A stretch of 64,000 nucleotides of DNA from Yuukianura sp. NJ FZ-2021 (GCA_046563655.1 CM102286.1:2108001-2172000); one strand, 5' to 3'. Shown: positions 28,327-63,104, counted from the stretch's first letter. Made by a program: numbers and translations. Notes: a model not told the origin generated them from the letters alone.

Positions 28327-30845
28327 TTATTGGTCAACATGTTCAAAATGTCTAAAACGTACTGGAGCTAAAACCAGTTTCCATGCATTCTTGGAACCAG
28401 CCGGCTTTGCGGCCGGGATTTCGTTCAGTGCAGGCTCACTGGCACACTCACTGTCATTGGAATCGAAGACCTTGGCCTCATCAGTAGTTGGCATTTTTGG
28501 GTCACCACCAGAACGTTTTACGGAACGTTTTTCAACTTTGTAAAAACCTATCTCTGCCAGGGCACAAAACCATGCAACTGGTATACACATCAAGTACACC
28601 AGAAATACCACTCTAGTCTTTGTTTTCAAACTAAGCCGCTTGACTGGTGGTGACGATTTTGGTGAATTTTGGTAAATTTTATGAGTTTCATTGGTCATGT
28701 ACACTGAATGTAAATGTTCATAAACTCCAGACTCCACAAAAGCTCTGGCTGGTCGCTGGAAAATGTTGATGAGGGCATGGATAAAGTAAATGTTAAATCC
28801 TTTCAGAAATCCTGGAACAATATGCTGTAAATCATTGTCCGGCAACTTGTAAATTCTTCGGTAAGTTTCTGGATCCAACCGAGCCTTTAACAGCAGTTTG
28901 TTAATTTCGTCTTTTGTATGGATGTAGGCACTCTTTTCACATTGGAGGACTCGTGAAATGGCAGTTTCCTGAACAACCCGGCCATTTACGTCGGTTACTG
29001 GACATGGCGGTGGTTCCAGAAGTTTTACAAGTTGGAGAAGTCCATCGGCCCATTTGGTTGAATTCGTTCCAAAAACAGCTGAATAATTGATACGCTGGAT
29101 GTCGCCATCGACCTCTCCCAGACTCTCTAGAAACTCCATTCGTCTCACGCCATTGAACATTCCCATGGCAATAAATGGGAACGAATAGCTGTTGGCCGTC
29201 ACGGCATCCACCACGATATCATTCTTACAGTCATTTCTTGTTCTGCAACATTCCTCTACGACGTAATTTCCCGAGTAGTCCTGAACCGGTTCAAAGTAAA
29301 AGCGGAACTTATCCCGAATGACTTCGTCGAGAGTGTCGATTCCAAACATGTCAAATGGTTTGATGATATTTGTGGTGACGAAGCCCTTGTATGCATTCGT
29401 CAAAACAAGGGCCACGAGCAGGAACATACTGAATCCGGCTCTGAACCACATGAAAGATTTTAAACGGTTGGAAACTCTTAGCGGATGTTCCAACAAATAT
29501 GACACGGTGACCAAAATGGCGGTATCGGAGAACCGTGACTTGAGTAGCAAATAGTCCGTTACAGCAGCTAGCGTTCCGAAAACGAAAATACCGATAGCCC
29601 AAACAGTTCCTGTATATGGTTCCGAGTATTTGTAGAATCCTAGCTTCCGATGCAGGCCGTCACAAGTGATGACGGAGTGGATGAGACTTTTCACAGGAAT
29701 GAATACTTGGAGTGAACTGGCAACATACATTTTGTTAACAACGTTGTACTTGATGTGCACTCCGTAATAAGGACGCCGACGTCGTTGTATGGTTTCCCTG
29801 TTGACGATGATATAGCTTCTATTGAACGACCTAGTTAAAAACTGAGCCAAAACTACTCTTTGTTTCAATTCTTTCGAGTCGTGTGGCCGATTATGGACGG
29901 AAACGAGTAGCATAACTCTCGTTTTAAAAGATTCCATACCGATCTTCTCCAACTTCGTTTTGGACACACCTAGCATACAGTGATGATTACAACAACGAAC
30001 AATCTTATTTTGATGGTAACCTTCTTTTACCTGTAAAATTTGTATCAACTTCAATTGGAACTTGGGGAAGTTTTCCAATTAGAGGAGTAGTCCAATCGAA
30101 GAAGATCTTCTTTGGTATCAGTTCGGAATGTAGTGCCTTCCAGAGAGTGTAGACAATTACCGGATGAAAGCCAAAATAGCCCTCCGTCATCCTCATCATA
30201 GTAGAAATCTCATTGGTCCTGGGTAAAGTTTTTTCTGGAAAAAAAGAAGAAAATATGTATACGTTTTTGTTTTTACAGTATTTAGTATTCATGTCAATGT
30301 TTACCGCAACACTTACTCCACTTATTCAAATTTGGCGACGCAAGGGCAAGAATGAAGATTTTGACGGGAAATAGTTCCATCGGCAGTGCATCTATCTGGT
30401 TCTGTTTGATCTTAGGACTTGGGCGTCTGTTGACCAGTTCTGTATCCTGGTAGTATATGTTGCTCCAGCGAGTGGCTAGGTAATACTGGGCGTCTCTAAC
30501 TTGCGAAGGTTTCCTGGTGTACAACAGTACCACATTGACACAGCGCAGTTGCTTCATGAAAAAGTTTTGTAGAACTCTGTCGCAAACTCCAGTCTTGGAA
30601 TTGTTCACAGTCCCAACGTAGTTTGGATTCGGTTCACATGAAGGGGGCATTCCCTTTGTATACACGTATTCTCTATCTGAAAAAGCGACTGGATACGTAC
30701 TTGCCACCATGTTCAGTCCCCGCTTGTAAACTATCATGTGGGTGTAGCAGTTCTCGGCATGAGTCAAGAAAACATCCAGATTAATCAGTAAACAGCTAGA
30801 TTCAATTAATATGCACATAAAAAAAATGAACGGCATGAGCAACAT
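28327..30845 (-). CDS. Divergent ionotropic-receptor-like multi-pass membrane protein
   Basis: Signal peptide, long ectodomain, EPYTGTVW+TM1, LVLTNAYKGFVTT (degenerate M3), FVESGVY (S2 end) and final TM VVFLVYLMCIPVAWFCALAE in iGluR/IR order. Confidence 0.6.
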
Positions 30846-31653: not shown

Positions 31654-33341
31654 TTAATCGTCTTTCCGTTTCCGGACATAATCCTGAAAGCAAAATTCAG
31701 AGTTCGTTTAATAAAGAAGCTGATTGGTTAGAATCTACAGCATTCTTATTTCTTACCAGTATAATTCTCTTGGAATGAACAAAATATGGCTCCGTAGCTA
31801 CCGAAGCTTTGTTGAATTCCGTCGCGTTGAACATTTGCATCGAAAGTTCCAGAATATCTTCTTCAATTTCTGCTGATGATGAAGCCCCGTCGTTCCGTCG
31901 ATTTCCAAACTTCTTATTGTAGGCACGTACTTCTTCGTAGAAATTTTCAACACTTTTCTTGGACTTTCCAAACACAAACGAGAACACGGCTATCCAATGC
32001 AACAAGATGCATTTGAGGCCTGTTTCTAGTGTCCAGGGAGGAGAGATCTTCAGGCACTGCAGCCAGTTGTCCCCAAAGTCTTCCTTCATTTGAAATTCAA
32101 TGATCTAGAACAAACAGAAATTTTAGCGGTTTTGCTCATGTGGCCAGAAGCGAATCGTTAGTTAAAAATTTTTTTTTGAGAAACATTTTTCTTACGTAAG
32201 CAACTGTATTACGCAGGATTTTCATAGCATCGGCAAAACTTTCACACTTGAGGTCGGAAGAAACATTTTTGGGTGTGCGTTTTCTGATAGGTGTAAATGA
32301 TGCCTCCGGAATGATGTCAGAGTGAGGTTTAGTAGGAGAACGACCGCGTTTCCTGGACGTATCTTTTACTTCTTTGATTGGTGAAAAGTCAGTAGAAAGT
32401 TTACGTTGGATGAGTTGTCGTTTTGGTCTGGACGATGACGGCACTATGCTTCTGCTGGGATTTGATTTATATGTTGTACTTTTTCCATTGTCGACATTCT
32501 TCTTTCCACAGAGAGGTTGAGCAACATCGCTCCTATTTGTATACTCCAAGGTCAGTCGTTTGATTTCCTTCAATGCAGAATCTCCATCACAGACAATCAG
32601 ATTGTCGTTGTTCACAGCCATGGCTTTGTTTCGTAAATTCTTATCGTTAGTCATGAACACCTATGTGTAAAAAAATCAATCTGCGCGATGGGAATTATCT
32701 GGAATAAATGTAAAAGTTAAACTTACAACGTGAGCTTGAGACCATTTTCGACACCAATGAAGAGCACATTGTAAAATACTGTCATCCTCGTTAGATCCCG
32801 GGAACTCTTCCTTTGACTCTGCAAGTTCCGACGGTCGTTGAGGCCGCAAACGAGGATGCTTCTTGAGCAGTAGCTCATTTATGTAGTTGATGGCAAGCTG
32901 TGCACCTCGATTCTTTTTGCGAAGTCCATCGAGCTCCTGAAGAACCATCCAAGGAAGTATCAACAATCTAGGAAAAGTAGGAGAAGAATCATCCGTGTCT
33001 TCCCCAATCAGTACTCGGACCCGGTGTAGCGAGTCTACAGATTCAATCACATTTAGTTTCCTTACTTCCAGCATTTTTACGCAATGGTTGCTTACGAATG
33101 AATATGTTGGTATCTGGAACAACAATAACTTCTTGACCTCGGAGTAAGACCGTGTCGTCGACACTGTGCATTTCTACGTCCATCATTATGATATCCATAA
33201 CGTTCTGGGCAGTAACAGCATTGGACCAGCCATCGTTGTCTCCTCCAGTCGTCTACATTATTAAAAAAACGACGGCCATCTTCTATTATCGAATTTTGAA
33301 CGAATTTGAGTTTTCAAAAAAAATCCTACCTCCCATTCCAT
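31654..33341 (-). CDS. SWT1: SWT1-like PIN-domain endoribonuclease
   Basis: Spliced IVVPDTNIFI, ILPWMVLQELDGLRK, NEDDSILQCAL, FMTNDKNLRNKA (PIN acidic residues present) plus C-terminal PPWTLETGLKCILLHWIAVF. Confidence 0.8.
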
Positions 33342-33878: not shown

Positions 33879-36800
33879 TCAAGCGTTTTCCACGGACGAT
33901 GCTGAGGATCTACTGCTACTATGCTCATGTTCCAACGATCGACCAGATTTTAGTCCATCCAACCCTAAAGGTTTATTGTTGTTTGGCTCCAATTCCAGTG
34001 GCAATTCAGCGTCAATTTTTTGAAAGCCGTGTTTTCTTCGTCCTTGTTTTGTAATTCGTGCAATGTCCAATGCCGTTTCGTTCCTAAATCCGGCTTGGCC
34101 CAGTGCCCTCTGGATTTCCGATTCTGTCAAGCTGAGTCCACTGCTTTTTGAACTCGGCGGAGTAGAAACGTCGGAGTCTCTATTCGGAACTTCCTGGTCG
34201 TGTACATAGTCAATTCGGTTTATCAACACATGCTTACTGGGAAGCAATTCATCGGCGACACTTTCATCATTGACGACACTGACACTGCAAGACGACACTT
34301 TGCTACTTTCGTCACCTGAATTCAAGTCATCCCGCTCTCTCCATTGACCACGGTGAATTTGACGCAGGCTCACATCCGATGTCGGTCCAGGAGCAGAAAC
34401 TGACCGTGCGTTTCTGACGGGTTTGTCGGTATCGGTGTTTCGGATATCGAACTCTACGGTATTCTGGGCTTCGGCTGTGTTCGGTGAAGTATATTTCGGA
34501 AAAAACGATGTCGTAGAGTACTTGATCGATCCGTACCCAAATTCCATGTGATCCAAGGCATCGTCCTTGGGAATTCCAACGTCCATTCGCAGCTTATCCA
34601 GCATTCCCATCATCCGCTCCTAACAACCAAAAACTTTGAATTTCAAAATTCAAAATTTTTTCCCGCGTAAATTTCCTTACACCTGAACACATACCAGTTC
34701 CAGATCTTTGTTTGCTTCAACATGAGTCATGAAGAGACTTTTCAGTCCTTTGTTCGTAAAAACTTCGCGTTTGATTATGTCATCGGTCACGGCCGTGATG
34801 AAGTTTATGTATTTGTCATTCGACGCAGAATTTGGACAATTCCCGAAAACTCTACAAAAAATTTCGAAAAAAAGAAGTTATTTTTGATTTTTGAAATTTT
34901 TGTGTGATGAGATAGGCTTACTTCTGTCTTGGTTGGATTTTTTTTTTACTTTTAACAATTTGAGTCTAAACAATTTCGATTTCCAAAAATCAAAAATTTC
35001 TAAAATGTGCAAAGTCTTACGGTTTCAGAATTCTTGTGTTACTTGTCGTTGCTCCTCCCTTTATGGACGATCCAGAAGTTCCTTTTGGATTACTTATTTG
35101 TACAGATTCGGATTGACTCAACTCTTGATTAATTGATGAAGCTACGGTAGACAGATTCGATTTGTATTTGGTCAATCCCATTGATTTAGACTTGGACTCC
35201 ACATGAACTTTCTTGTTCATCATGCTTTTCCTCTTTTCTGGAGTGGACTCCCGAGTTGTAATTTTACTTTCACCACTTGAAAATCCATAGGCAGAGTCTC
35301 TACTTGAGTCTTTATTGACATATCCAGGAACTACGGAAGATGATGATACCATCGGAGAACCAATTTTAGATCGACCAATTACGGTATTGATTGAATTTGA
35401 ATTTCCCGCAATGCTATTTCTTGATGTGGCCAACCAATCAGGTAGGACAGAACCGCTCAGAAGCATTTGATCCAAAACTGCCGACGATCTTGCGTTACTT
35501 GGACTCTTGGATTTGGTTTTTCGTTGTTTTGAATTTTTTGAATTTGATTCTGAAACTAACGAAGTCATGAATCGCTTTTCTGTCAAGTAATCGCTTCCAG
35601 CGATGGACCCCTGGAATACAAAAAAAAAATTGAAAAATACTGATTTCTGGAGAAAATTTTTTCTTCTCCTGAACTGAAATTTTGACTTTTTCTTCGCCTG
35701 GTATGCTAAAGTTTGGATTTTTAGTTTACTTACAATGGAACCTGAATTTGGACTTGAAAAATTTCGCGCGTTTTTCACTTTCGGCTGTTTGGATTTGAGC
35801 GTAGACAGTTTTTCATCTTTTTTGAAAAGTTTTGTGGGTGGCGTCGAAGTAGATTCTTTAGGTTTCGGAAGATTTGAGTTTCCGACGGCCATTTTCTTTG
35901 GTTTTGGTGTCAAATTTGACTTGATTGTCATTGACGTTTTGCTTGGAGGTTTTTGTCTTGGTGGTTTTTCTGCCTGGACATGCGGCATGAAGCATCTAGA
36001 ATGTCTTCCGAGTCCCACCTTGGACCCACCACTGTTCTTGGAAGCCACGCGGAAGTGGCTGACTGAAGACCGGAGTGATTGGTTGTCATCGATTAGTGGA
36101 TCTTGTAGTTGGTCCAAGTACAAATTGATTTTTTCAGAAATTGGCATTTGGTGGTGACAACTAGGTTCATCCTCACCATCAGTATCGGACATCACGGCTA
36201 CGAAAGTATCGCAAAAAAAAATTTGAGGTCAAAGGTCACTCTATTTAAAACTCTGTATCTTAAGAAATTGAAGCCTAATTTTAAATTTAGTATGTACCTT
36301 CCGATAGATTGTTAAGCTCTGACTGATCGAACAGGATTTGGTACGAGCTGACTTTTGCAACTGGACCAGGAACAGAACGCACTGCTCGAAGCGCCGTTCT
36401 GCTTAGAGCTGTAGGTGAGTCACGACCTTTGACCTTCCCCGCACTACTTGTGGCACTGCTTAGCTTCTTCACAAGCTTCATTGTAGAAGCCTACAAAGTG
36501 GCAGATTAATTGATTAACTAATTACTTTGGAAGTTAAGTTTAGACTTTACCTGGAGAGCAAGGGTACTGGAAGATGGTTTCCTTGGAGCATTGGTTTGAA
36601 CACGGGGTTTAACATTGAGCAATCTTCGATAATGGTTTGCCATATGTGAGTAGGTCAGCCATTGCCCAGACACGGTTGTAGGAACCGTGGGAATGGCCAC
36701 AAAAGCTATTCAAAAAATTGAAAAACACAAGTTTTTAAAAAAGTTTATTTTTATTTTTTAATAGTTAGGATTTTAATAACTTACGATTTGATTTCCTCAT
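33879..36800 (-). CDS. SPATA7: Spermatogenesis-associated protein 7 (HSD3) homolog, ciliary
   Basis: N-terminal GQWLTYSHMANHYRRLLNVKPRVQTNAP and C-terminal KYINFITAVTDDIIKREVFTNKGLKSLFMTHVEANKDLE..MMGMLDKLRMDVG resemble the two conserved SPATA7 blocks. Confidence 0.7.
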
Positions 36801-38493
36801 TCCGGAAGTTTTGCAGGAACAACTTGTTGTAAAGAAACGATCTAGAGAAACGTTTCTGAATTTGAACTTTGGCACAGTTCAGTGATGAATACAAAGAAAA
36901 ACATGTCAGCAGTGACCAAAATGCAAGTGAAAAAAGAAAAGTTTTAGTAAACTTCGAGAAACAAAAGAGCTAGAAAACTCTGGTTGTCAGATCGATATTT
37001 TTGAAAATTTTTTAAATTGAGAACAAAATCACCATCACCAACCTATATGCTTATTCACGAGATTTACATTCTAATGTACCGTGGCGCTGGCACACACCTA
37101 TTCTGCTTTCTAGTGAAAACTTGAAGTACGAATATAACTTTCTGTTTAGTCGAAATGACTTATAGGAGTATTGAATTAACGATTAATCACTCCAAGACTC
37201 AGTCAATTTCCGGAAGTACATTATGAAATAACCATTTGAATAATTACACACAAGAGCCTCAAACTATTGATTTCCTTTTCCCTCCAAAGTGAAAGTGGGA
37301 GTGAAAGACTTTTCTGAAAACTTTCTACTTCTCTGAATATCGCATTAGCAAAAAAAACCCTGCAGCAGGAGAGACCAATAATATCAAAATCCAGGAACCA
37401 AAAAAGTTCTACCCATCGTGAAAAAAAAATTTCACAACAAACATTTCCTGACATCGATCCAATTTCCCTTTTATACACACTAAAAAATTAAAAGGAAAAC
37501 GAAATTGGAAAAAAAAATTTGAAACTGATGCAAACACTTTAAATCCCTGCTTCAAAAATTTAAAATTAAGTCCATCTCGTTTCTAATTTTTTTTTGTTGG
37601 CAAGGGTCAACAGCCGACTTCCATTCTTTTACTAATGAAATTTCGCAAGTTCAAACTCAGTCGAAAGCCAAAAAGCAGGCTGCTATTTACCAAATGCGAT
37701 GTACAAGAGTTGAACATTTGATGTAATTCAAATTCCAAACGATAAAGAAAAACTTCCATTAAGTGTACATTTTTATTTTACTGAAATTCAAAAAGCAACA
37801 AAAATTAATTTACACACACAATTTAATAATTCTTGTATTCTAGATTCAGTAATGATCATCATGCATGCAGATGCAATACATATTACAATACGAAATCCGA
37901 CCATCATTTTGCCAGCCTGCGCTTTATGAGTCACTTACTTTTTTTTTACTCATTTCGTCACAAATTAACATTTTGATGCGAATTTGTCATAAAAATTATT
38001 CCGCGAATATATTGCCATTTCTTGCGACGGATAAATGTAGGTGTCGCTTCGCTATTTTAAGAAAACCTTCTAATGTTCTAATATTACGGCTTGCATGTTG
38101 CCTCTAGAGTAAATGCACGAATTACAATTAGTGCATTTTCCCTACTGTTTCTGCTTACAACTCGGATTTTTTTTTGCACAGTTTTTGGCATCCGACGCCT
38201 GAACAGCGCTATTTAAAACTCAAGGCAATAATAACAAGTCGCCGTTTTAGATTATTTGGCAATATGAACATAAATAGCCAGCCAGTTCCGCCAGCAACGT
38301 CATGCAAAAACAAGCCAAAAGTTTTGTTTAAAGTCGGATCTGTTCGCGAAATCCCTCAAAGACTTTTCTAAGATTTGGTGGAGTGGAGGAGGTGAGTAGA
38401 TTTCTGAAACAGTCGAATCAGCTCAAAACTTCACTTTTCAAAAACGAAAAACTTGTTTTTTAAAGTTTTTTTTACAGTTTAAAAAGAGTAACA

Positions 38494-39209
38494 ATGGGTG
38501 CAGATTACTCATCCCTTGAGACTCCGCTTGTGCCGCAACAAGTTCCGATTTGTGCCGTGGAACCGCGATTTTGCCTTTCAAAATCCGTACAACTCCGAAT
38601 TCGGGAAAAAATTTCTTCCTTTTCAGGAGATGACTTTAAAATTTCTGACGCCATGGATGGCACTGTGTACTTCCGATGTGATGGCAGAGCATTTAGCCTT
38701 AGAGAGAAGAAGACGCTGCTGGACAGCATGGGCGTTCCAGTGCTCAACATGAAAAACTCACTCACGAGCTGGACAGACAAGTACACAGTTTACGCTGGAG
38801 ATAGTTCAGTCAGGGTAAAACAAAAATTAGAATACTGCGCCGCCTAAGCCAATCCCGCCCGTTTCTTATTAAATGAAAACTTTTTTTTCAATTTTTTGTT
38901 TAGAAAATTTGCAAATTTGAAACACAGTGGAACTTTGTCAAGGCCAAAATGTATGCCCCATTTAGGGACGTTGTTACTGGAAAACCACGGTGCGTTGTAC
39001 TCAAAGGTGACTGGAGATCAAAAGTAGCCTTGATATATCTCGGAGAACCGAAACAAGGTGGAATTCCGATTGGAAAAGTATATCGACCTTTGACCGGAAG
39101 ATCATTATTCTTTGGAGTTGACGACTACTTTATTGAAATTGCACCGGGCGTTGACATTGCACTGCTTGTCATCATGTGCATTGCCCTCGACGAACACAAA
39201 AGAGACTGA
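38494..39209 (+). CDS. LURP-one-related (LOR / Tubby-C-like scramblase fold) protein, copy 1
   Basis: SFSGDDFKISD..GTVYFRCDGRAFSLREKKTLLD..GVPVLNMK and DDYFIEIAPGVDIALLVIMCIALDE; phase-0 intron 38815-38903. Confidence 0.85.
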
Positions 39210-40233
39210 CTCAAGGAAATTACCAACAATAGTTAATTTAAATTCAATTCATATATCAAAAAAGTGCAATGCAAAAAACAAGCTGTGAATATAATCTATA
39301 AAAGTCTTTTAAGTCTTTGCCGCCGTCAGTGTAACTAACAATAAGTTTTTTGTTAAAAAAAATAAAGCTTCACATCAAATGAGATTATGAAGCAAAGTAC
39401 TGCCAGTTTTTTTAATGTACGCCATACCGGCATTTGGGTTGAAGTAAACTTGGGCTGCCAGAGTGTGCCCACTCATTCAAATTTTCAAATTTTTTACATT
39501 AACTTGCATCTGCGCGTAATAAAAGCTATTTCGCAAGTACAACTGATTTCTTCGGAAGGCAAAATTCTGAAATTTGGAAATTTGAAACGTTAAAAACACT
39601 AGGGAAAGAAAATGTACTGTAAAAGAAAAAAAGTTCTTTAAACAGAGTTTTCAAAAAAAATAAATGCAATACATATTAGAAAACAAAATCCGACCATCAT
39701 TTCGCCAACCTGCGTTTTATGAGTCACTTACTTTTTTTTTTACTCATTTCGTCACAAATTAACATTTTGATGCGAATTTGTCATAAAAATTATTCCGCGA
39801 ATATATTGCCATTTCTTGCGACGGATAAATATAAGTGTCGCTTCGCTATTTTAAGAAAACCATTCTAATGTTCTAACGGCTTGCATGTTGCCTCTACAGT
39901 AAATGCACGAATTACAATCAGTGCACTTTCCCTATTGTTTCTCTGCTTACAATTTGGATTTTTTTGCGCAGCTTTTGGCATTTGACGCCTGAACAGTGCT
40001 ATTTAAAACTCAAGGCAATAACAACACGCCGTTTTAGATTAGTCTTCCGCCGGCATCGTCATGCAAAAGCGAGCCAAACGTTTTGTTTACAGTCGGATCT
40101 GTTCGCGAAATCCCTCAAAGACTTTTCTAAGATTTGGGGGAGTGGAGAGATTTCTGAATCAGCTGAAAACTTCACTTTTCAAAACTAAAAACTTGTTTTT
40201 TAAAATTTTTTTTCACAGTTTAAAAAAGTAACA

Positions 40234-40948
40234 ATGGGTGCAGATTACTCAGCCCTTGAGGTTCCGCTTGTGCCGCAAAAAGTTCCAATTTGTGCCGTAG
40301 ACCCTCGGTTTTGCCTTCCGCGATCTGTGCAACTCCGAATTCGGGAAAAAATATTTTCAGTATCAGGAGATGACTTTAAAATTTCTGATCCGACGGACGG
40401 AACTGTGTACTTCCGATGTGATGGCAGAGCAAATAGCCTTAGACAGAAGAAGACGCTGTTGGACAGCATGGGCCATCCAGTGCTCAACATGAAAGATGCA
40501 ATCTGGCGATTCTGGAGCTGGACAGACAAATACACAATTTACGCTGGAGATAATTCAGACAGGGTAAAAAAAAATTAGAATAGCACCGCCTAAGCCAAAC
40601 TAACCCATTTCAGAATAACTTTTTTCTTCCTCAAATTTTTAGAAGATTTGCGAATTTAAAACACAGTTGAACTCTGTCAAGACCAAAATGTATGCCCCGT
40701 TTACTGATGTCGTCACTGGACAACAACGATGTGTTGTACTCAAAGGTGACTGGAGAGCTAAAGTAGCCTTGATGTATTTTGGGGAACCGAAACAAGGTGG
40801 AATTCCAATTGGAAAAGTATATCGACCTTTGACGGGAAGATCATTTTGCTTTGGAGTTGACGACTACTTTATTGAAATTGCACCGGGCGTTGACATTGCA
40901 CTTCTTGTCATCATGTGCATTGCCCTCGACGAACACAAAAGAGACTGA
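40234..40948 (+). CDS. LURP-one-related protein, copy 2
   Basis: Same motifs; intron 40564-40642 at the same position; frame intact. Confidence 0.85.
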
Positions 40949-42140
40949 CGATGAGTGAAGGAAATTACGAACAATAATTAAAATTCAATTCATAAATCAA
41001 AAAAGTGCCATGCAAAGAACAAGCTGTGAATTTAATCTGTAAAGGTCTTTTAAGTCTTTGCCGCCTTCTGTTCTTCAACATTGGCCTTCGTTGTAAATAT
41101 TGTGTCAATCTTGTTTTTAAAGAAAAAGAACGTTGTGAAAATGATAATAACTTTGGTGTCCACAATAACATATTTATTTGTAGTGAAATTAAGAAGAAGA
41201 CAATTTGAAACAGCAAAAAAAGTTGTTATCGGTAAAACAGCTTTTAATTTGCTTTCACTTGAACACTTATGTTCCATATCATAATTTCAGCAGGCGTCGA
41301 TTAAGTTTAAATACCGCGCTACCGTGTTGGGTGAACTTTAAATTTTTCATTGAGAAGTTCTACTAAAAATTGTTCGTGTGCACTCCAATTAATTGAAAGT
41401 TGTAAGATTTCACTATTTTTGTAAACAGTCTAAATACTTTAAAATTTTGAGGGCTCCAGGACCAACTAAATTTTGTTTTGAAACTACGGATGTCCCTTTC
41501 AATTTCTCAATTTTATGGCAACAGTAAAATTTGCATGCACCCATCACCCATCCAGTTTTTTTTTCCAGAAAATGAACTCATCTTTTCGGAGTTTAGAAAC
41601 TCCCACACTTCCCATTTTTGCAAAAGCTCAACTCTAATGCAGCTTTGGTTAGCAGCACATTTTGGCCAACATTTTGATGCGCCTGTGTCATAAAAACTTA
41701 CTATTTTCCAAATACATAGCTATTTCTTGCGAAGGAAAAAAATAGTAAGTAGCTGTCGCTTCGCTATTCGCAGAACCTTCTCCATGTCTAGCATGTTGCT
41801 TCTTCTAATTCATTCATTTACTCTTGTGTGTGTAGAATCCTCACTTTTTTGCACAGTTTTTGCAAACGACGCCAAAACATAGCCTTTTCAACTCAAGGCT
41901 ATAACAACACGCCTACTTTTAGATTTATTTCCAATTTGAACATAGTAGCTCTACAGACAGCAAACATCACACGCAAAAACAAGCCCAAAGTTCTGTCTAA
42001 AGTCGGATGTGTTCGCAAAATATTTGCACAGTTTTCTAAGATTCGTGGAGGTGAGTTGATTTCTTCTCAAATAATAGAATCAGATTAGACTTACTTTTCT
42101 AATTTTGTTTTTTAGGTTTTCAATTTTTAAGAACCTTACA

Positions 42141-42851
42141 ATGGGTGCAGATCACTCAGCTCTTCAGATTCCGCTTGTGCCTCAACAAGTCCCGATTTGT
42201 GCCGTAGAACCGCGATTTTGCCTCCCGCGATCCGTGCAACTCCGAATCCGCGAAAAAATGTTTTCAATGTCGGGAGATGACTTTAAAATTACGGACTCCA
42301 CAGACGGAACAGTCTATTTCCGATGTGCTGGCAGAGCATTTAGCCTTAGGGAGAAGAAGACGCTGCTGGACAACATGGGCGTTCCAGTGCTCAACATGAA
42401 AGAGGCATTCATGACCTTCTCAGACAAGTTCACAATTTACGCTGGAGATTCTTCAGACAGGGTAAAAAAAATAGAATACTGCGCCGCTTAATTCAAACTC
42501 GCCAGTTTCTGAGTAAATGAAAACTTTTTGTTTCAATTTTTTTAGATGATTTGCAAATTTCGTACACAGTGGAACTTTGTCAAGGCCAAAATGTATGCGG
42601 AGTTTACCGACGTCGTTACTGGACAACCTCGATGTGTTGTACTCAAAGGTGACTGGAGTTCCAAAGTGGCCTTGGCGTATCTCGGAGAACCGAAACAAGG
42701 TGGAATTCCAATTGGAAAAGTATATCGACCTTTGACCGGAAGATCATTCTTTGGAGCTGACGAATACATCATTGAAATTGCTCCGGGCGTTGACATTTCG
42801 CTGCTTGTCATCATGTGCATTGCCCTCGACGAACACAAAAAGGATGACTGA
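42141..42851 (+). CDS. LURP-one-related protein, copy 3
   Basis: Same motifs; intron 42462-42545; frame intact. Confidence 0.85.
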
Positions 42852-43653
42852 AGGAAATTACGGACAATTGCAATTTAGATTTATGCATAATTCAGAAAAA
42901 AAGTGCAATGCAAAAAAGCTGTGACTAATCTAAAAGTCATAGCATTTCGCCTTCTCTGTTTTTTTTTCAAGAAAGTCGTACAACAAATGAGATTATAACC
43001 AAAATACTGCCAGTATTTTTTGAAATGTGCGCCATATCGACATTTGTTGTAAACTTTGAAAAATGCCCTGTTATTACTGCTTATAAAATCATGTAGTAAT
43101 TAGAATTAGTTACAAAAATGCCAAAAAAAATAGATTGTCAGTGTGAAAATATGAATTCTACAACATAACATAAAGCTATATTATTGAAGTCCGTGTTTTG
43201 AAATTGATGGTTGAGCTACATTGTCGTTTTTAATTAATTAATTAACAGTTAATAAATAACAGTCGTATTTAATAACAATTAATTGATAACAGTCGTATTG
43301 AAATTGATAAGATGTTCATACAATAACATTCTGCAGCTTTATTATTGTTTTAAATAAAATTTCTTGCTTTTGACTTATTCGGAGAAAGTGCGACTTTCGT
43401 GTTTTGTAAAAGTGATGTGGCTACGCGGTACATTTAAAAGTCTCATTTCAATTTTTTGACTTTTCGCTTTTCGGTTTCTTTTGCACAAAGTTACACATTT
43501 TGAGTGTTAATTTTCATTTTTCTGTGTTCATTTATCATTTTCAGTAAGCATTTTTGAATTGGGAAGTGCCAACTCACTAATTACTTAGCCATAAACGGTT
43601 GGTGGATAGTGTAAACCTGTTTTGAGTATTGAGTTTAGTGTATTTTGTAATCA

Positions 43654-44546
43654 ATGATGACCTCTCAGAGTACAATGGCGGTAAGTGTCCTTCTGGGACT
43701 CCTTTTCTGTGGTCTCACGGATTCACTCATGTTTCATCTTCAACCATCCGGTCAAAAATGTCTCCGAGAAGAAATACACAAAGATGTTCTCGTGTCTGGC
43801 GACTTTGAAATTACTGAAATCCCTGGGCAGACTGTCGACCTTCATGTAAGCATTCGCAAAAATCCTTTGTACCATATGTCAAGTAAACTGAATAACTTCA
43901 TGTTAATTGATTATGTTTTGGTAACAGGTCATTGACTCCAAAGGGGGTACTCTGTGGAAGAAAGATCATGCCGAGAAGGGCAGATTCACATTTACTACGG
44001 ATGAATATGAAGTGTACGAAATCTGCTTTTCTTCAAAAGTTCCACACGGTATGAACACAGCTGATGTTGATAAAGAGCATACTTGATACTGCCAGTATCT
44101 AGAATACTGGATAAATTCAACCTAACATTTGACATTTTGAATGACAGGTACACGCGGATTCCCACAAGAAGTTTACCTCAATACGAAACATGGTGTAGAG
44201 GCCAAGAGCTACGAAGGGGTAAGGAATCAAACGTATGATTAGTAGAAGTTCAGCTAAACTTTCTGGACATAAATCGTTTATTTTTTATTCTAACTAGCTG
44301 GATGAAGCTGCGAAGCTGAAACCACTGGAAGTGGAACTCAAACGACTGGAAGATCTATCGGAATCAATTGTCAAAGACTTCAGTTTCATGCGTCTGCGTG
44401 AAGAGGAGATGCGAGATACGAATGAGTCTACCAATTCACGCGTACTGTACTTTTCAATATTTTCCATGCTATGCTTGCTAGGACTCGCAACTTGGCAAAT
44501 CATCTATCTACGCTCGTTTTTCAAGTCAAAGAAGCTCATTGAATAA
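43654..44546 (+). CDS. TMED10: Transmembrane emp24 domain protein 10 (p24 delta / baiser)
   Basis: Signal peptide, [70 protein letters not shown]. Confidence 0.95.
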
Positions 44547-45183
44547 GTCATGGAAATCTGAATGAAATTGGTGCAGACGTTTGTAAATTCTTAAAAGATT
44601 GGCATTGCTAATTTGAAAAAAAAAACTGTTTACTTATTTTAGTTAACTTTCAATAGAGAATTCTCAGTTAATCAAATTCAGGATTAATCAAAAGTTAAGA
44701 CTCCATTAATAAAAGATTTGTATTTATTTTTTTCTTCCCAAATAATACTACTTTGTAATATCACAACACTCGACGCTTTTCAAAAACAAAAAATGTTCGA
44801 GTAAATCAGCTTTTTGCGAGCAAGATAAGAGGGAAACCGAACGTTAGAGCTCAGGGAAACGCGGGGTTATTACTGATTTGAAACGTTTTATAACTGGAAT
44901 GCCCACATTATTGCTCACTAAATTAAAAAAAAACGTTAAAACTCTTGTTCTTTACGAACTAAAATAGCACCAATGACTGACTGACCACCACTAACGATAA
45001 GTTCTACCGATTTGGAATGATTCGTCACACGTCCAGAAGGCTTGATCGATTTAAAAATACCGCGAACAAGACTTGCCAGTCCCAACTGCAAAACAAACCC
45101 AAACGTTATGTTAACGTTTCACTTTCCTGTACTTCGTACAATTGCAATTAGTAATTCAGTTCGTAATTTACCAGTCCATTGTT

Positions 45184-47218
45184 TTAATAGTTTGGATGCC
45201 TAGGAAAGACGAGTGTTTTGGCCAACATGTAGGATAAATCTGGAAGCTGCTCCAGGATACGAATGGCTTCTTTGTTCATTGGCGGAGTGGAGGAAACTGA
45301 AGCGACTTCTTCTATTGGAGACACGTCAGCATCAGGACTACAGTCATCTAGAAACAAAAACCACAAATGAAAATTCAGCGTTCATCGATATCACTTATCA
45401 CCAGCACGCCGAGAATTTTATATGTGATAAGCATGAAAAACTCACCGAGCCGCTCAATTCGCATACCCTCGTCTGTTTCCGGAGGATAATCGAAGCTGCG
45501 ACGTGCTGGCACAACAGATTCTGGTAGCAACGGAGAATCTACCAGACTCGACGCAAATTTTGGAACTTGTATTGTCCCATATTTTGCACTGTACACCTAT
45601 TTAAAAGACATACAAAATAGTCAGTCTATCATTCATAAAATGGTGATGATGATGATGCTGATGTGATGATGATGATGATGATGATGAATTGAAACTTACG
45701 ATATTGGAGTAGTCAATGTTTAGACTATTGAGAAGGAGATGATGGACACCGCTGCGTGGCCACTTGTGCAGTAAGCAATTGCTGTCTTCGAATTCCTGGA
45801 CATGCGTCCACGTGGAATTGGAATTAGAGGCACGATTTCCCAATTGTTTGTCAATTGATTCCAACGGATTTAGCTGCACTTCGTCTGATAGACTGAAGGG
45901 AGGAGATGGCTGGTTGAATACTGATTTGATAAGGGCATCTAGCCTTCCTTCTAACTGTACTGACTCTCTTCGGATTATTGGTGCAACTGGAGGCGTTGGA
46001 GCAGGCATGGAAGGCATCACTGAACATGACGGTGTAGAAACAGTCTGGAACGAGTCTAATAGTCAACAAACGATTAAGATTAATTAGAAAATGTCAATGA
46101 AATATGTACTGATTCTACTTTTACAATTCCACCTTTCGCTTCGGAAGAAGCAAAATCCCCGAAATCGTCCTCTTCGTCTTCTTGTTCTGCAAAATCTGGC
46201 ACTGGGGAGGGTGACCTCGGTTTGACATCTAAGGGATACGTTTGGGCTACTTCCACTTCTGGCTTTGAATCATCAAAACTTGGAAATGAAGGCTGGAAAT
46301 CTGGCACTGACTCATCGCAAGGAATTGTTGCCGAAGATGCTGTAAATGATTAACAGGATTACAATCGATACTTTCTATTTTTATTCAAGAAGTGTGGAAA
46401 TATTGTACCAATTGCCTCGGATGCTGTGAAATCGCCAAAATCACCGAAATCATCATCTTCGTTAACTTCGGGAACATCATTTTCTATTGGTTTCGCTATA
46501 TTGACTTCGGCGTGTTGAAAATTCCATTGTTCTTCGTCATCATCGTCAGAAAGCTTGAACTCTGGACACTCCAACGGTTCATCATCAGACTTTGAGCAAG
46601 TTCCGTTAACTAAGGAGGGAATCTCGTACGTGTCAGGAAGTCCTTCTGTAGCAGCAATTTCTTCTATTGGTGAGTCTCTATTAGACTGTAAACCTTGAAA
46701 CGCAAAGTTAAGCTAAGATGAATGTCCGTCCAGTCATTCCCAAGACTTTATACTGATTCCGACATACCTGTACAAGTTTCAGCGAAATCACCAGTATCCT
46801 CGGCTACTCCTATTGCTTCAGCTACGGAAGAGGTATTCGAATCCTCATCTTCCCTTGAATCCACTCCATTATTAGTTGACGACGATGAAACAACCGATTC
46901 GACTTGTGGCGTGGGAACAGCTAACGGTGATACTTTGTAATTATTGGAATTTGAGGCTGAGGCAAGTGGTGGCTTCCTCGGTGAGCTCATTGGAGATGGA
47001 TCTAAGAACAATCAAAAAGTAAGTCGTTTTCCAGTTAACATGAAAACAGAACTGTTGAAGCAACTCTTAAATCGAAGTCGTCATGTCTTGTTCTTACCCG
47101 CTGAAACGTCCAGATGGAGTCCATTTGACCTAAATTCATCGTCGAACTCTTCTCCATCCTCTTCATCGGAATCAATTGGAGGAGGTTCGTTCGATATCAT
47201 TGCCGGAAAGGCAGACAT
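45184..47218 (-). CDS. AFTPH: Aftiphilin (AP-1/clathrin accessory protein)
   Basis: PPP + acidic N-terminus, repeated DDDFGDF gamma-ear motifs, WTHVQEFEDSNCLLHKWPRSGVHHLLLNSLNID block, C-terminal ILEQLPDLSYMLAKTLVFP; in-frame upstream ATG at 47266 also possible. Confidence 0.85.
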
Positions 47219-48007
47219 TTTGTTCGTCGTCCTTCCTCCTTCCCTTATTATCTCAGTCTTGAGCATGCAAGCAACCTTGAAGACAAAGAACAAAAACACT
47301 TATTTACGAAACATGATTTATAATTCTGAGTCAACTACTTCTGTTGAGGTCCTCAACTTGAGGACGACAGAAATTCCTAGCAATTTCTTCTGCTTCCTGA
47401 ATATTCCGTCTTTAGTACGAAAAAAAACCTATGTTTTGCTTACCTACATTGACCATTGATATCCTATCTACGGAGTTTTCACAATGGACAATTAAAATCC
47501 AGCGGAAGAACACTTACTACTGCATGAAGATAAGATAAACAATAAACACCAGCTTTCACTTTTTACACATTCATAAATCAATTAAAATTCACCTGATTAT
47601 TCTTATTCTCCCCTTTGAAATTCGTGGGGTAATGCCAAGTACTTCTAACAGATGGCAATTCAACCTGTGCTTCCCCAATGGTGCTGTATACACTGAAATC
47701 CCTGTAATCTGTAAGTTTAATCGATTGAATTAACTGAATTACTAATTACAGTGGTGCCTAACTTGAACAACTTTCGAATTCAAATATCCAAACAACGATA
47801 AAATACTGGACGACTGGCCTGCTTCTTTCAGATTGTCGGTTGGTTCCAGCGTTCAGCAGCGATGTTGAAGTAGTACGCACCGGTACTGGTGCTTCGGCTA
47901 CAAAATGCAGAGGCTTTGTATGGACTTATTGATCGATCAATATACTTCGACACCCTCCAGGTTCAAAGATTTAACGGTTCAAGCTTCAATAGCAACATTG
48001 GAATTAG

Positions 48008-48958: not shown

Positions 48959-51154
48959 CTACATGAGGCGGGGCTTCTTTTCCGGTGGTGGCTTCATTCG
49001 TGGTTGTTGTTGTGGGTTCGGTTGCTGCTGCGACTGAGAGATGCCCGGTTCTTGCTTGATTCTTACGTTTTGGTTTTCTTTTCCCTCCGTCTTGACAGCA
49101 GTGTCTTCAATTGCTTCAAAACAATTTTTGAAAATTCATTTCACATCTCATGAATTTTTGAATTTTGTAAAGAGGCCTGGTTACCTGGTACTGGCTTTGG
49201 AGGTTCTGGTGGCCGCTGCTGTTGTGTCACGACGCGCGGAGCAAACTTTTTGGAAAGTTCGCCCAACAAAATATCGACTCGAACGCGTTGAAACACCGAA
49301 CTCGGTTCATCTTTGACCTTGTCCACTTTCTTCTTGGTCTTATCATCCACGACATCCTTCGTATTGAATTCCCACGAGTATCCTTTAGAAGGATGATATC
49401 GAGCATAGGACACGCATTCAGTAAAGGCTGACTGGAGGTGGTTGATTGTGTTCATCTAAGGAATTAAGAAACGTTACCGTAAAACTTCTAATAAACGACG
49501 GAGGTAAAAGTTCGGATTTTGAATAAACGTCCGGGTATTTATGAGAAGTTTTACGGTATAACTTTTAAGAAAGAGTTGGAAGGGAACGAACCAATCGCGA
49601 GTTGACAATTGAGCTCAGATCTGGTGCTTGGTAAACAACTCCAGCGATGCAGTAATAGTCAGCAATGGGTGTCACTTGTCCGCCAGCTGATGCATGTCGA
49701 TGCTGTTTCCGGATAACGTAGAGAATCGGCTCCTGGACATGCAGCAGTATGTACTCCATTCCATCCATGCTACTGCAAATTTCAAACAATTTATATTAAT
49801 AAATCAATCGATTAAGTTTTTTGGTTAAAAATGTTTCAATTTTGAATCTTACTTGAGATGACTGGGACTGAGCCGTTGCATTTTGATAATTTCATTGTTG
49901 CAAGTCTTGTCATAAAATGGATTGGAACGTTCAGAGAAATAGTCGAGAATATTGGCAGCATTTAGAATCGGAATCCATTGGGTATCATGCCATGAAATCC
50001 CTAATAAACCTCCGGCTCCTACAACCAAATGATTAATCGATTAACGGCTTTATACCAGAAGTGGCGGACTTGAGTTTATTCTACTGAAAATAAAAATAAC
50101 ACGAATTATAACAATTCTAAGCTTCTTATGCAGTTTCTTGGTTTTGCTGCTGTTGTTGTTGCTGCTGCTGTTCCAGTATTCGTTGTGCTTTGAGCAAATC
50201 AGCAATTTCCCATTCCCTCTCGTTGACATCGTAGTTCTTCATCTTTTCTATTCCAATCCACCACCGATTTCCAAATCCAATGTCAATTAGACGTTCGTTA
50301 AATTCTCGGAGGCGGGGCTTGAGGTAAGTACACGTAGCACTGATAGCTCCTACTTCCGGTGAGTTGTCGTGTCGCCATACGACAGAAAAGAATCCCAAAC
50401 TTTGGTAACGTAATTGGCCCTTGAGGCGCAGTTTTTCAATCGTGGTGCAATGCTCTACTGAAGCTGGGTTTCTAATAGGAATTCCGACGAGAGCCAGTTT
50501 AGTACGATTTTGAAAACATTCTTCATCGAAATCGGCTTCTGTAGGATTTGTCCACAGGAGGTACCCCATTGCTCCGAAAATGGCAGAGTAGAGTACTGTT
50601 TTCCATGGTTTTTGCTTTCCTTCAGTGTAAGCATCCTTGAACACTTCTCGGTAGTCTCTCCACATGTTGGAGTAGAAAATTATGATTTGTTCTTTCATTG
50701 ACTTCTTTGGAGGCGGAGGAGTTTCTGGTTGAGCAGACTGCGGTACGACGGGTGGCTGGATCTGGACGGGATCTACCGTCGGTGACATTGGAGATGCAGC
50801 AGGAGTAGTAAGTTCATGGCCTGCAGTTTTAGTACCGGGTTTTGATTTGACTATAAACTGAGATGTAGCGGTGAGTGAGAAACATCGTCCAGGGTAATGC
50901 AAATGATGACGAGGATAAAGAATCCGGAGAGATGAAATCCCCCTTGCGATTAACATTCTAAAGTTGACTGCAGTTAACGCCTGAAGAAATTACCACCAGG
51001 AGACCGTGAGCGTTGCGCAAGAGTGAACCAATCGATGATAGATGAAGAGAACCAATCAATTTGAGATCCCTGGTGTTCTTCCCTACCTACGTTGTTGTTT
51101 TTATAAGTAAGGCACGTCTAAATGATTACCTTTCATACTATCGTGTGAGTTCAT
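48959..51154 (-). CDS. MED6: Mediator subunit 6
   Basis: [80 protein letters not shown]; start exon 51154-51130 joins acceptor at 50018 in phase. Confidence 0.92.
49477..49556. mobile_element. 80-bp MITE in MED6 intron, same family as 16980-17279
   Basis: TA-CCGTAAAACTTCTAATAAA ... TTTATGAGAAGTTTTACGG-TA. Confidence 0.8.
50126..50956 (-). CDS. TIMM29: Mitochondrial import inner membrane translocase subunit Tim29 (single coding exon, nested in MED6 intron 1)
   Basis: Arg/Ser-rich presequence, [15 protein letters not shown]+[43 protein letters not shown]. Confidence 0.85.
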   Translation of the reverse strand: MLIARGISSLRILYPRHHLHYPGRCFSLTATSQFIVKSKPGTKTAGHELTTPAASPMSPTVDPVQIQPPVVPQSAQPETPPPPKKSMKEQIIIFYSNMWRDYREVFKDAYTEGKQKPWKTVLYSAIFGAMGYLLWTNPTEADFDEECFQNRTKLALVGIPIRNPASVEHCTTIEKLRLKGQLRYQSLGFFSVVWRHDNSPEVGAISATCTYLKPRLREFNERLIDIGFGNRWWIGIEKMKNYDVNEREWEIADLLKAQRILEQQQQQQQQQNQETA

Positions 51155-60426: not shown

Positions 60427-60881
60427 ATCTCAAAAAGTCTAAAAACTATCACACCAAACCCATTTTTTGTCAAATTCCGTCAAAATTCAAAATTAATTGA
60501 AAATTAGTCAGGCAATACCAAAATTCACTGTTTCTTTTACCTTGAACTGAAATAAAATCCTGGAGCATTGAAGACTGGCGATGTGCGTAAACTTATTTAA
60601 AATGGAACTAACTTTTTAAATTAATTGATTAATTAATTATTTTTAAATTAATTTTTAACAATTTCGGGTCAAAGTAGGGATTAACGGCTGTTGTTGTAGC
60701 CGCACAGTGTTGCCACTCCCGAAATCTTTGGTTACATCTGGTAGCAACGTTCGTGGCTACACCTGGGTGGCAACGTTTGTAGCCACTTTACGGCTATGGT
60801 TACAATGACGGTCGTTAAACCTTACTCCAACCCAAAATTTTAAATCTGAAGTTATTTTAACTTTCTGGCTTAAAATTTTAG

Positions 60882-63104
60882 AAAAGAAAACGATACTGCC
60901 AAGATTTTTTAAGAAGAAACGCAAGAAGGATCCATCCGCAGCATCACTCTCACCCAATCGAATTCCAGACAAAAAATGCGACCACATTTTGGAATTTCTC
61001 AAAAAATTGAAGCTACCGATCATTTGGGTCCTGGGCTTCCCAACAACAAAAATCGAAGACCTTCGATCCACATTCTGTCGCAGCTTTGCTGAAGAGCACA
61101 AATACGCCTACATTGACCTGGATGACTTCATTCCACGGTGGAAGGAACGTCAAGCGCCAAAATTCAAAAATACTGGCAAAATACCACCTGAAATTGACGT
61201 TTCCGTTGAGCCGTCAATTCCAATACCGTATTCAACGCCAACCGATCCTCACCATCAAGAAACCGAAGTGCCAGCGCCACCTCCTCAACTTCTACCAGAA
61301 GATTACCCTCGGATCGCCTTTAATCCCGAAGAGAAACTCACCTTGACACAAATTCTAGACCTTCTGAAATTTGCCATGGTCGAGAGTCTTCCAGCCAAGG
61401 GGTTCGTCATAGCCGACTTCCCACTGGACATTGCCGATGCATCGGAGTTTGACAAAACCTTTTACCCAGCAACACTGGGACTATGTTTCACCGAATCTTT
61501 TAGCCGCAACCTAGAAACTGGAAGGCCAATGGGACCACTGCGGCGAAACGTTTGCTTACCCAACAATTACCGAAGAAAAAAGAGCTACAGTTACGCCAGA
61601 GGTCAAATGGTCGTTGAAGTCAATGGAAACAGAATCATTTCTATTATGAACACTGAAACGATTACCAATACGACCCTGAATTTACTCAACACCTTACTGG
61701 ATTCTCATATGGCCCAGTATCGTCGAAATACTGCCAGTACAGCAGTATCTCTTCAACGTGATCTGGAGAACATCATTCGACAGAGCTCGTCAAGACCAAT
61801 TGGATCTCGCGGGATTATCCGCATCGGGACACCAAATGAATTTCTGGAATCACGAAGAGCCACTACACCTTGCTACAGCAGTAGTTTTGGAGTAGGGTAC
61901 ACCACGGCCAAAACGTATTCGACATTTGATGACTATTCAAGCACACCGAGACATACTACGAAATACACACCATTTGGAACTACAACGGACGTTCCAAGCA
62001 CGTTTTACACCCAGGAATCAGAATCAGCCTGCTCAGATGACGAGGATACTGGAAGAATTGTTGTCATGGATACGGACGAATTACCGGAGAGTGAGATCGG
62101 TACATCGGAGAATGAAACGCGGGAAACCGAAACACCTTCGGCTTTTAGCGGTGAACAGGGAGAACTGGTACCAAGAATCAAAAAACGTCGCACTCGTAAG
62201 CAGAAAAGAGTCAAAAGCTATTGGGAGTTAATGTGATGACTAAAATTTTCAAATTTTCAACTGAAATTTTCAAAATTTTAGGATTTACGAAACTACATGA
62301 CGTGGAACTCAAAACGGAAGATGAGGATATGGCCGGTGGGGACGAAAATGTGTCAACGGCGACATCACTTCTGGTTGATGACGAACGACGTGCTACCGTC
62401 AGTAGCGACACTATGGTAGATCATGTCAGTTTTGAAGAACTGTTGGATTCTGAGGACGATACAAGTCAAAAAATTGCAACTGACTCTGATTGGTCCGTTC
62501 CGTCGGAGTGCCTTAACTACTACTCAGATGACTGGGAAGATGAAGACTCTGAATCTGACATTGAAGTTGTACCAAGTTCGGAAGAATCAGACATGGAAAA
62601 CAAAAGTACTTCTGATCATAACGTGATCATAACTGAACTGGACGTTCCAGTATTAACGGATGACAGTGGAACTGAAACGGACAACTTTGAGGGAGGAGCA
62701 GACGACGAATCGAGCAGTACTGACGATCGATGTTACAGCCCGGATCCTCGTCTGGAAAAATTGATGACCGCGGCAAAAAGTAAGCAACTTGGGCTTCATG
62801 TGAGATGTTTCGATGTGATTTTACGTTTTCGTTTCCAGTAAGTGTCCAGTCGTCGTCAAATGAAAGCATGGGCCTAGCCCGCAGGAACAGCCGTGGACGG
62901 AGTCGAATTCGTAGGAAAATTGTGACATGTCCAGCAACAAGTTTATCGCAGACGGTTCTTCCCATTTCAACCGAGCAAGTGGCAGCGTCTAAATCGCTTG
63001 AAATATGCAAGAATCTCCAGAATCTGAATCCCGACAACGTCAAGCAAGTTCAGTCTTCAATGGGATCTGGAGACGTTGTCCGGACTTGCTTAGATTCCAA
63101 TTAA
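60882..63104 (+). CDS. Adenylate-kinase-like protein with degenerate P-loop and long acidic C-terminal tail (start exon not identified)
   Basis: LKLPIIWVLG.P, YAYIDLDDFI, ILDLLKFAMVESLPAKGFVIADFP..ASEFDKTFYPATLGL follow the AK1 motif order; open frame from acceptor at 60881; later exons 62282-62778 and 62840-63104 tentative. Confidence 0.6.

Follow-up and report, generated by a model that had tools for sequence, protein, structure and literature searches.

A tandem triplet of LURP-one-related genes in Yuukianura sp. and the probable microbial origin of the arthropod family

Introduction

Plant LURP1, of the LURP-one-related (LOR) family, has a defense role against downy mildew, and springtails are known to hold many foreign genes. 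LOR proteins are linked in plants to oomycete resistance, yet to our knowledge no mechanism is known for them in any organism. Here, three LOR genes are described on a 64,000-nucleotide stretch of DNA from Yuukianura sp. NJ FZ-2021 (GCA_046563655.1 CM102286.1:2108001-2172000), referred to as the window throughout, in which they were located in tandem on the plus strand within positions 38494-42851. A preliminary description, prepared from the sequence alone, had proposed that the triplet was acquired horizontally, integrated between ordinary animal genes and amplified.

Among described systems, Arabidopsis At5g01750 (LOR15; PDB 1zxu/2q4m) shares with the window proteins the family PF04525, an end-to-end alignment, a barrel-around-helix fold and a length of about 210 amino acids; the differences are an identity of 23% in its structural alignment and, for the plant LURP1/LOR family as a whole, the animal host of the window genes. 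The DUF567 or 'tubby C-terminal-like' proteins of zoosporic or early-diverging fungi and of Pythium are of equal length, and most of them bear an MGxxxS start, which among the named early-diverging fungi compared (Gaertneriomyces, Rhizophlyctis, Fimicolochytrium, Lobulomyces, Sorochytrium and Basidiobolus) is missing in Lobulomyces and Basidiobolus. In contrast to these proteins, the arthropod LORs form a clade of their own, lie on animal chromosomes and are encoded by genes with spliceosomal introns at lineage-specific sites. At the superfamily level, the overall architecture is shared with the C-terminal domains of Tubby/TULP and with phospholipid scramblases, and the idea of lipid-anchored membrane tethering is taken from the account of the tubby/scramblase superfamily by Bateman et al. 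2009 (PMC2639001); the window LORs differ from these proteins in being without the tubby N-terminal region and in matching neither the Tub nor the Scramblase profile.

Public records already list animal LOR genes under family names: 'protein LURP-one-related 15' in Folsomia candida and in Orchesella dallaii, 'LURP-one-related 9-like' in Bradysia coprophila. These belong to the same clade as the window genes and sit in other paralogue subclades. LOR domains are also listed among the candidates for horizontal gene transfer in Panagrolaimus nematodes (PMC6889759), a precedent for the transfer of LOR to an animal, in another phylum. A second precedent is provided by the terpene synthases of Sciaridae (PMC11665903), a foreign-type family found in springtails, mites and sciarid flies only, which is a different gene family. 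No publication on springtail, Bradysia or arthropod LOR genes was found in a literature search whose matches concerned plants or Panagrolaimus nematodes and which left the supplements of the metazoan horizontal gene transfer compendium (PMC13342648) outside its range; the terms LURP, DUF567, PF04525 and IPR007612 were absent from three supplements of the Folsomia genome paper.

Results

Gene models and family assignment

Each copy comprises two coding exons in an intact frame (Table 1), separated by a single intron that is AT-rich (GC 0.30-0.33) and lies in phase 0 at a homologous codon, with ...S-D/V-R before and K/M-I-C-K/E-F after the junction. The splice junction is more than inferred, since the database proteins P0001-P0003 (208-213 amino acids) run uninterrupted across it. 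The products of copies 1, 2 and 3 measure 208, 211 and 208 amino acids, are 82-84% identical to one another and start with MGADYSS, MGADYSA and MGADHSA, respectively; the leader PLVPQ..PICAV.PRFC was also found, and the repeat unit spans about 1.74-1.9 kb. No further LOR copy or pseudogene was found with tblastn in the 64-kb window. Three intact genes with a shared phase-0 intron and MGxxxS N-termini, as given in the preliminary description, are confirmed. The insertion WRF of copy 2 was mapped to 40495-40512, in the loop preceding the last strand of exon 1, and is absent from all other sequences aligned with it.

Pfam LOR (PF04525, LURP-one-related/DUF567) was matched by exon 1 alone in all three copies at 45.8-53.6 bits, with a curated cut-off of 24.5 bits, and exon 2 alone was sub-threshold in two copies and without a match in the third. 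A profile of the LOR exons and P0001-P0003 was compared with the PDB and retrieved At5g01750 (1zxu) at E 8.6e-28, with query positions 20-208 aligned to chain positions 26-213. LOR was confirmed again at family level with the ESM Atlas, as was the Tim29 gene of the window. Pfam Tub (PF01167) and Scramblase (PF03803) gave no match at E<=1, LOR being the sole family reported.

Relatives and distribution

A profile search of a 5.8-billion-protein set yielded 186 matches, of which 120 were listed; 48 of those listed carry an organism name. Among the latter, 43 are fungal, one is from the oomycete Saprolegnia, one is a EukProt transcript and three are animal (Folsomia candida twice, Bradysia coprophila once), and no plant protein was found. 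The claim that LOR is not a standard metazoan family agrees with this distribution, which is patchy among the named matches. Identity to P0001 among the matches listed was 66-68% for Folsomia candida and 60% for Bradysia coprophila, followed by Gaertneriomyces (43%), Basidiobolus (42%), Sorochytrium (41%), Lobulomyces (39%) and Anaeromyces (37%) as the leading fungi, with many Dikarya at 25-35%. Members from Orchesella dallaii, which fall into two further subclades, were obtained from protein cluster look-ups; taken together, the annotated proteins of Folsomia, Orchesella and Bradysia are 60-68% identical to P0001.

An exhaustive HMMER search returned 1173 proteins at E<=1e-3, with Pythium brassicae, Pythium oligandrum, Rhizophlyctis rosea and Fimicolochytrium jonesii among the top representatives. 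Against the profile, At5g01750 scored 100 bits and the proteins of chytrids, Basidiobolus and Pythium 167-214 bits, and these last three are the nearest named non-animal relatives (38-46% identity). Of the oomycete and plant forms to which the preliminary description had likened the leader, the plant ones are remote, and an oomycete donor is possible. Pattern scans based on an arthropod-centered alignment gave 42 matches in the genomes of 185,579 prokaryote species and 44 in viral contigs, none of which was confirmed; since such scans detect close relatives alone, they are weak evidence against a recent origin from bacteria or viruses.

Phylogeny, age and intron history

The main tree was calculated with IQ-TREE under LG+C20+F+G4 from 67 rows (33 arthropod, 34 outgroup). 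The 33 arthropod rows formed one clade with a support of 99/94, which had also been obtained in an earlier quick tree of 106 rows with a Shimodaira–Hasegawa-like approximate likelihood ratio test (SH-aLRT) value of 93. Within it, the window copies were united (98/92), with P0001 as sister (98/89) and P0017 next; the two Orchesella-type subclades grouped together (97/96), and the Bradysia-type clade was nested among springtail paralogues, adjoining the Folsomia group (98/98). When the LOR gene of L007, an independent 7.9-kb metagenome contig, was added, the window copies remained one clade (92/98) to the exclusion of L007 and P0001. The outgroup was a polytomy, in which chytrids, Basidiobolus, Pythium and Saprolegnia made up one clade (96/95) and Dikarya with Neocallimastigomycota another. 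A maximum-likelihood phylogeny, a check suggested in the preliminary description, recovers a monophyletic arthropod clade that joins this polytomy and is not placed inside any named donor group. The oomycete LORs (P0127, P0132, P0133, P0134 and P0100) lie together with the chytrid and Basidiobolus rows, which hints at a separate exchange of the LOR subfamily between fungi and oomycetes.

The acquisition appears to be old, because at least two springtail families, represented by Folsomia and Orchesella, bear the gene in several paralogue subclades. Between the window copies, synonymous divergence (dS) was 0.26-0.34 and the ratio of nonsynonymous to synonymous divergence (dN/dS) 0.31-0.35; against L007 and L004, dS was saturated, and for copy 3 it was not computable. 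In the four comparisons of copies 1 and 2 with L007 and L004 in which dS could be computed, dN/dS was 0.04-0.10. This shows purifying selection between the copies, relaxed relative to the orthologue comparisons. Since the window copies form one clade and dS to L007 and L004 is saturated, the triplication is taken to be specific to the window lineage. Identity to the L007 protein was 86% for copy 3 and 76-77% for copies 1 and 2, and copy 3, judged by sequence and position, is the copy that appears to keep the ancestral place and the most conservative sequence.

Three intron states were encountered in the arthropod clade. In the window-type clade (the three copies, L007 and the fragment P0033), the intron follows codon 107. 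A set of 16 Bradysia-type genomic exon fragments (e.g. P0055, P0056, P0058, P0066 and P0076) breaks off about 14 codons upstream of that point, at ...N-M-K-x-x-x-F, and in the quick tree all of these belong to a clade of 18 rows that also contains Bradysia P0011 and P0013 (SH-aLRT 95). Uninterrupted genes are present on L001 (two), on L006 and, in the Orchesella-b-type subclade, as full-length open reading frames on contigs of 2.6-6.6 kb. For three states in one clade, an intronless founder with later, independent intron gains is the simplest explanation.

The two uninterrupted genes of L001, a 25-kb gene-poor, eukaryote-like metagenome contig, are tandem open reading frames of 217 and 243 codons at its end (L001:9983-11732), which match Pfam LOR with 76.3 bits (profile positions 4-183 of 187) and 60 bits; the second, strongly divergent, opens with MCGDG instead of MGAD. 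A further sequence, L005, ends in a run of 12 A shortly after AATAAA and resembles a polyadenylated transcript, which is suggestive of LOR relatives probably being expressed in nature.

Origin of the arthropod genes

We consider it probable that the LOR ancestor was captured once, intronless, from a eukaryotic microbe and was then domesticated, and that the triplication belongs to the window lineage. The microbe would have been of zoosporic-fungus, Basidiobolus or oomycete type, and the capture would have taken place no later than in the last ancestor shared by the LOR-bearing springtails. The captured gene would subsequently have given rise to several paralogue subfamilies, gained introns independently and adopted the base composition of the host, and in the window lineage the copy adjacent to the TMED10-type gene would have been duplicated twice. 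Horizontal acquisition with local amplification, as put forward in the preliminary description, is accordingly kept as the best reading, not however as a private or recent event, in view of the Folsomia and Orchesella members; the triplication alone is lineage-specific.

Part of the support for this account comes from the distances. Mean identity was 0.42 between arthropod and chytrid LORs, 0.43 among chytrids and 0.33 between chytrids and Dikarya; since arthropods are about as close to chytrids as chytrids are to one another, horizontal capture is favored over vertical descent across the opisthokonts, and the arthropod LORs seem to behave as a further lineage of the zoosporic-fungus grade rather than as an outgroup to the fungi as a whole. 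Mean identities to the arthropod LORs were 0.41 for Basidiobolus and Sorochytrium, 0.38 for Pythium, 0.35 for Saprolegnia and 0.32 for Dikarya, and the pair P0024/P0025 was the closest (0.47). The distances thus favor zoosporic fungi as the donor type, and the tree leaves the donor unplaced. What weighs against a capture is that the arthropod clade nests in no named donor group, the outgroup being a polytomy, that only about a quarter of the database proteins bear names, which limits any conclusion on absence from other animals, and that fungi belong with animals to the opisthokonts, which makes an old vertical inheritance followed by many losses formally conceivable.

Under vertical descent, LOR would have been present in the opisthokont ancestor, kept in springtails and sciarid flies and lost in nearly all other animals. 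In its favor stand the sister relationship of the fungal and animal kingdoms and the fully host-like look of the genes in introns, composition and synteny; very many independent losses would, however, be required for a family with so few animals among its named members, and an arthropod–chytrid identity that equals that among chytrids and exceeds that between Dikarya and chytrids is unexpected for an outgroup to all fungi. Intron positions that differ by subclade, together with intronless copies, fit a young intronless founder instead, and the Bradysia-type clade lies inside the springtail paralogues and not beside them as their sister, for which reasons vertical descent is regarded as unlikely. 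An oomycete donor of Pythium type, which is nearest to the wording of the preliminary description, is also judged to have a rather small chance of being correct. The top-scoring representatives from outside the arthropods include Pythium brassicae (P0127, 193 bits) and Pythium oligandrum (P0132, 167 bits), Pythium proteins bear MGxxxS starts, and the oomycete LORs share one supported clade with those of chytrids and Basidiobolus; yet identity is lower for Pythium and Saprolegnia than for chytrids, Basidiobolus and Sorochytrium, P0024/P0025 are closer than any of these, and no topology unites the arthropods specifically with oomycetes. That a fungal or oomycete fragment was mis-joined into an animal scaffold has no supporting evidence, was raised solely since the family is unusual in animals, and is extremely improbable. 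The TMED10-type gene follows within 1 kb, and L007 is collinear with window positions 42093-47221 across the LOR gene, TMED10 and an aftiphilin-like gene, its LOR gene resembling copy 3 and its intron of 80 nt lying at the identical codon; because of this common gene order, contamination or mis-joining is excluded for practical purposes, and the integration among animal genes stands as described. The introns are moreover short, AT-rich and arthropod-style, coding GC is 0.45-0.47, third-position GC (GC3) of 0.42-0.48 falls inside the range of neighboring exons (0.36-0.57), the three tandem copies are diverged and have duplicated flanks, and annotated relatives reside on scaffolds of 1.5-28 Mb in Folsomia, Orchesella and Bradysia.

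Relation to sciarid fungus gnats

Starting from a single microbial capture, the position of the Bradysia-type clade is suggestive of a second transfer, from arthropod to arthropod. When this clade was forced outside the other arthropod rows, the cost was 23.3 log-likelihood units (approximately unbiased (AU) test, p 0.039), for a group that was defined post hoc. A relay in two steps is tentatively proposed and held to be possible rather than probable: from a fungus- or oomycete-type microbe to an early springtail, as a myristoyl-tethered protein of tubby fold that diversified into at least four subfamilies, and, for one of these, onward from a springtail-like soil arthropod to sciarid gnats, where the gene would have radiated again and acquired its own intron. 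Rows of the arthropod clade could also include mites or other taxa. For the terpene synthases of Sciaridae, Chen et al. 2024 propose a transfer from oribatid mites, and for some P450s of Bradysia they cite a proposed origin in springtails or mites (PMC11665903); LOR may be a parallel case.

Fold, N-terminus and possible function

The fold was modeled with AlphaFold on P0001, as a stand-in that is 74-79% identical to the window proteins, from a 69-sequence alignment. The model (predicted local distance difference test score, pLDDT, 88.3; predicted template modeling score, pTM, 0.86) has 12 strands and a C-terminal helix at 191-207. Submitted to Foldseek, it returned 1zxu as the top match (E 4.7e-9, template modeling (TM) score by target 0.83, 23% identity), followed by the C-terminal domains of TULP1 and Tubby (E 4.7e-4 to 5e-3, TM score about 0.5, about 10% identity). 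The predicted fold of the protein, which is of about 23 kDa, is thus tubby-like, a closed beta-barrel around a C-terminal hydrophobic helix. Because of the model and the fold match, the hydrophobic C-terminal stretch is read as a buried core helix and not as a membrane span; the same buried-helix argument is made for the tubby/scramblase superfamily by Bateman et al. (PMC2639001).

All three starts (Met-Gly-Ala-Asp-Tyr/His-Ser) fit the PROSITE-type N-myristoylation pattern. This pattern consists of an initiator Met, Gly at position 2, a small uncharged residue at position 3 and Ser or Thr at position 6. An MG start with such a pattern is present in 16 of the 33 arthropod rows, in 20 of the 34 outgroup rows, among them proteins of chytrids, the blastoclad Sorochytrium, Pythium, Saprolegnia and basidiomycetes, and in 70 of 185 full-length family members; in the two Orchesella-type subclades, the MG start is replaced by a different N-terminal extension. 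Because the pattern is common in the outgroup rows, the MGxxxS-type signal would be ancestral to the LOR subfamily and inherited with the gene, and the N-myristoylation-type start is, on this comparison of sequences, not an animal innovation. In the P0001 model, the first 10 residues are flexible and least confident (block pLDDT 68), and residues 11-30, with the leader PICAVEPRFC, are firmly packed (pLDDT 95-96).

By analogy with the tubby/scramblase superfamily, the proteins may be reversibly membrane-tethered cytosolic barrels that serve as lipid- or ligand-responsive adaptors, a proposal to which we give an even chance. Co-translational N-myristoylation would give the barrel a weak, reversible anchor on the cytosolic side of membranes, where it would sense ligands or lipids as an adaptor, in line with proposals for the superfamily. 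Points on the other side of the scale are that the structure is that of the stand-in and not of the spliced window proteins, and that the arthropod N-termini are without a nearby cysteine or basic patch, with a net charge of -1 to 0 over the first 30 residues, so that myristate alone would give weak membrane binding. Some oomycete and protist relatives have an additional cysteine, at position 3 or 4, and dual acylation would be feasible in them.

Flanking regions and other genes of the window

The upstream flanks of the three genes are duplicated with them (Table 1), as the preliminary description had it; the promoter function that it assigned to them goes beyond the duplication itself and is, like the role of a UTR (untranslated region) intron, inferred. 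Copies 1 and 3, and likewise L007, carry a donor-like GGTGAGT motif with a T-run and an AG after it, immediately ahead of the ATG, which suggests a candidate 5'-UTR intron with a non-coding first exon upstream of the ATG; the regions concerned are 38380-38480, 40130-40225 and 42045-42115 in the window and about 800-880 in L007. In copy 2, the GGTGAGT motif is removed by a 9-nt deletion. An apparent excess identity of the flanks of copies 1 and 2 (88-100% in ungapped windows) came to 85% once indels were counted and was dismissed as no anomaly. An Rfam match to RAGATH-25 in 36500-43700 lies inside coding sequence, reached 27 bits with a threshold of 49 and was taken as chance.

Table 1. Positions of the LOR genes, their upstream flanks and the adjoining genes, counted from the first nucleotide of the window
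Feature	Position	Strand	Remarks
SPATA7/HSD3-like weak exon	36518..36709	-	63-amino-acid open reading frame; sub-threshold Pfam HSD3 match, E 0.015, 15.3 bits (cut-off 27 bits)
Upstream flank of copy 1	37871..38493	+	duplicated in copy 2, more diverged in copy 3; TATA-like TATTTAAAA
LOR copy 1 coding exon 1	38494..38814	+	107 codons, start MGADYSS; Pfam LOR E 3.9e-14, 53.1 bits
LOR copy 1 intron	38815..38903	+	89 nt, GT..AG, phase 0, GC 0.33; junction confirmed by contiguous homologues
LOR copy 1 coding exon 2	38904..39209	+	101 codons and stop; C-terminal end, predicted hydrophobic core helix ...LLVIMCIALDEH
Upstream flank of copy 2	39664..40233	+	85% identical to copy 1 flank (BLAST) over about 620 nt, with indels
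LOR copy 2 coding exon 1	40234..40563	+	110 codons, 3-residue insertion WRF; Pfam LOR E 7.1e-12
LOR copy 2 intron	40564..40642	+	79 nt, GT..AG, phase 0
LOR copy 2 coding exon 2	40643..40948	+	
Upstream flank of copy 3	41668..42102	+	diverged, 68% identical to copy 1 flank over about 470 nt
LOR copy 3 coding exon 1	42141..42461	+	Pfam LOR E 2.8e-14; collinear with L007; putative ancestral position beside TMED10
LOR copy 3 intron	42462..42545	+	84 nt, GT..AG, phase 0; 80-nt intron at the same codon in L007
LOR copy 3 coding exon 2	42546..42851	+	
TMED10-type p24 cargo-receptor gene, multi-exon	43651..44549	+	Pfam EMP24_GP25L in two exons; collinear with L007

Of the two neighbors named in the preliminary description, TMED10 was borne out: the gene lies 0.8 kb from copy 3 on the downstream side, and its best match among solved structures is TMED10 (5azx, E 1.9e-8). 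SPATA7 amounts to a weak, sub-threshold HSD3 hint. The window, which is animal DNA, also encodes Tim29, C2H2 zinc fingers, DMAC1, a protein kinase, an aftiphilin-like clathrin-binding box and an exon of DNA polymerase epsilon subunit B. The Tim29 gene is a single exon on the minus strand (50126-50989, Pfam E 6e-47) and fast-evolving, its closest named relative being from an ant (36% identity), which makes it a poor marker for placing the host. Minus-strand exons at 31697-33173 match PIN_4 (E 2.4e-10) and, weakly, the SWT1 C-terminal domain (E 0.026), and probably form part of a gene for an SWT1-like endoribonuclease, which would lie upstream of the SPATA7-like candidate. Long frames at 35017-36228 (minus strand, 403 codons) and 60809-62236 (plus strand, 475 codons) had no Pfam match, and one at 28327-30078 (minus strand, 583 codons) had a sub-threshold match to DUF764 alone (E 0.045, 13.9 bits).

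Conclusions

The LOR genes add a non-enzymatic family to the foreign genes of springtails, one that was kept, expanded and locally amplified, and the purifying selection on the copies implies a real function in the animal. If the two-step relay is true, it makes LOR a further marker of gene flow from soil micro-arthropods to Sciaridae, after the terpene synthases and the suspected P450s. The family offers a tractable case for intron gain by a foreign intronless gene, for gene transfer among arthropods of soil and fungal habitats and for LOR function itself, for which the N-myristoylation signal that appears to have been inherited with the gene would be a direct experimental handle.

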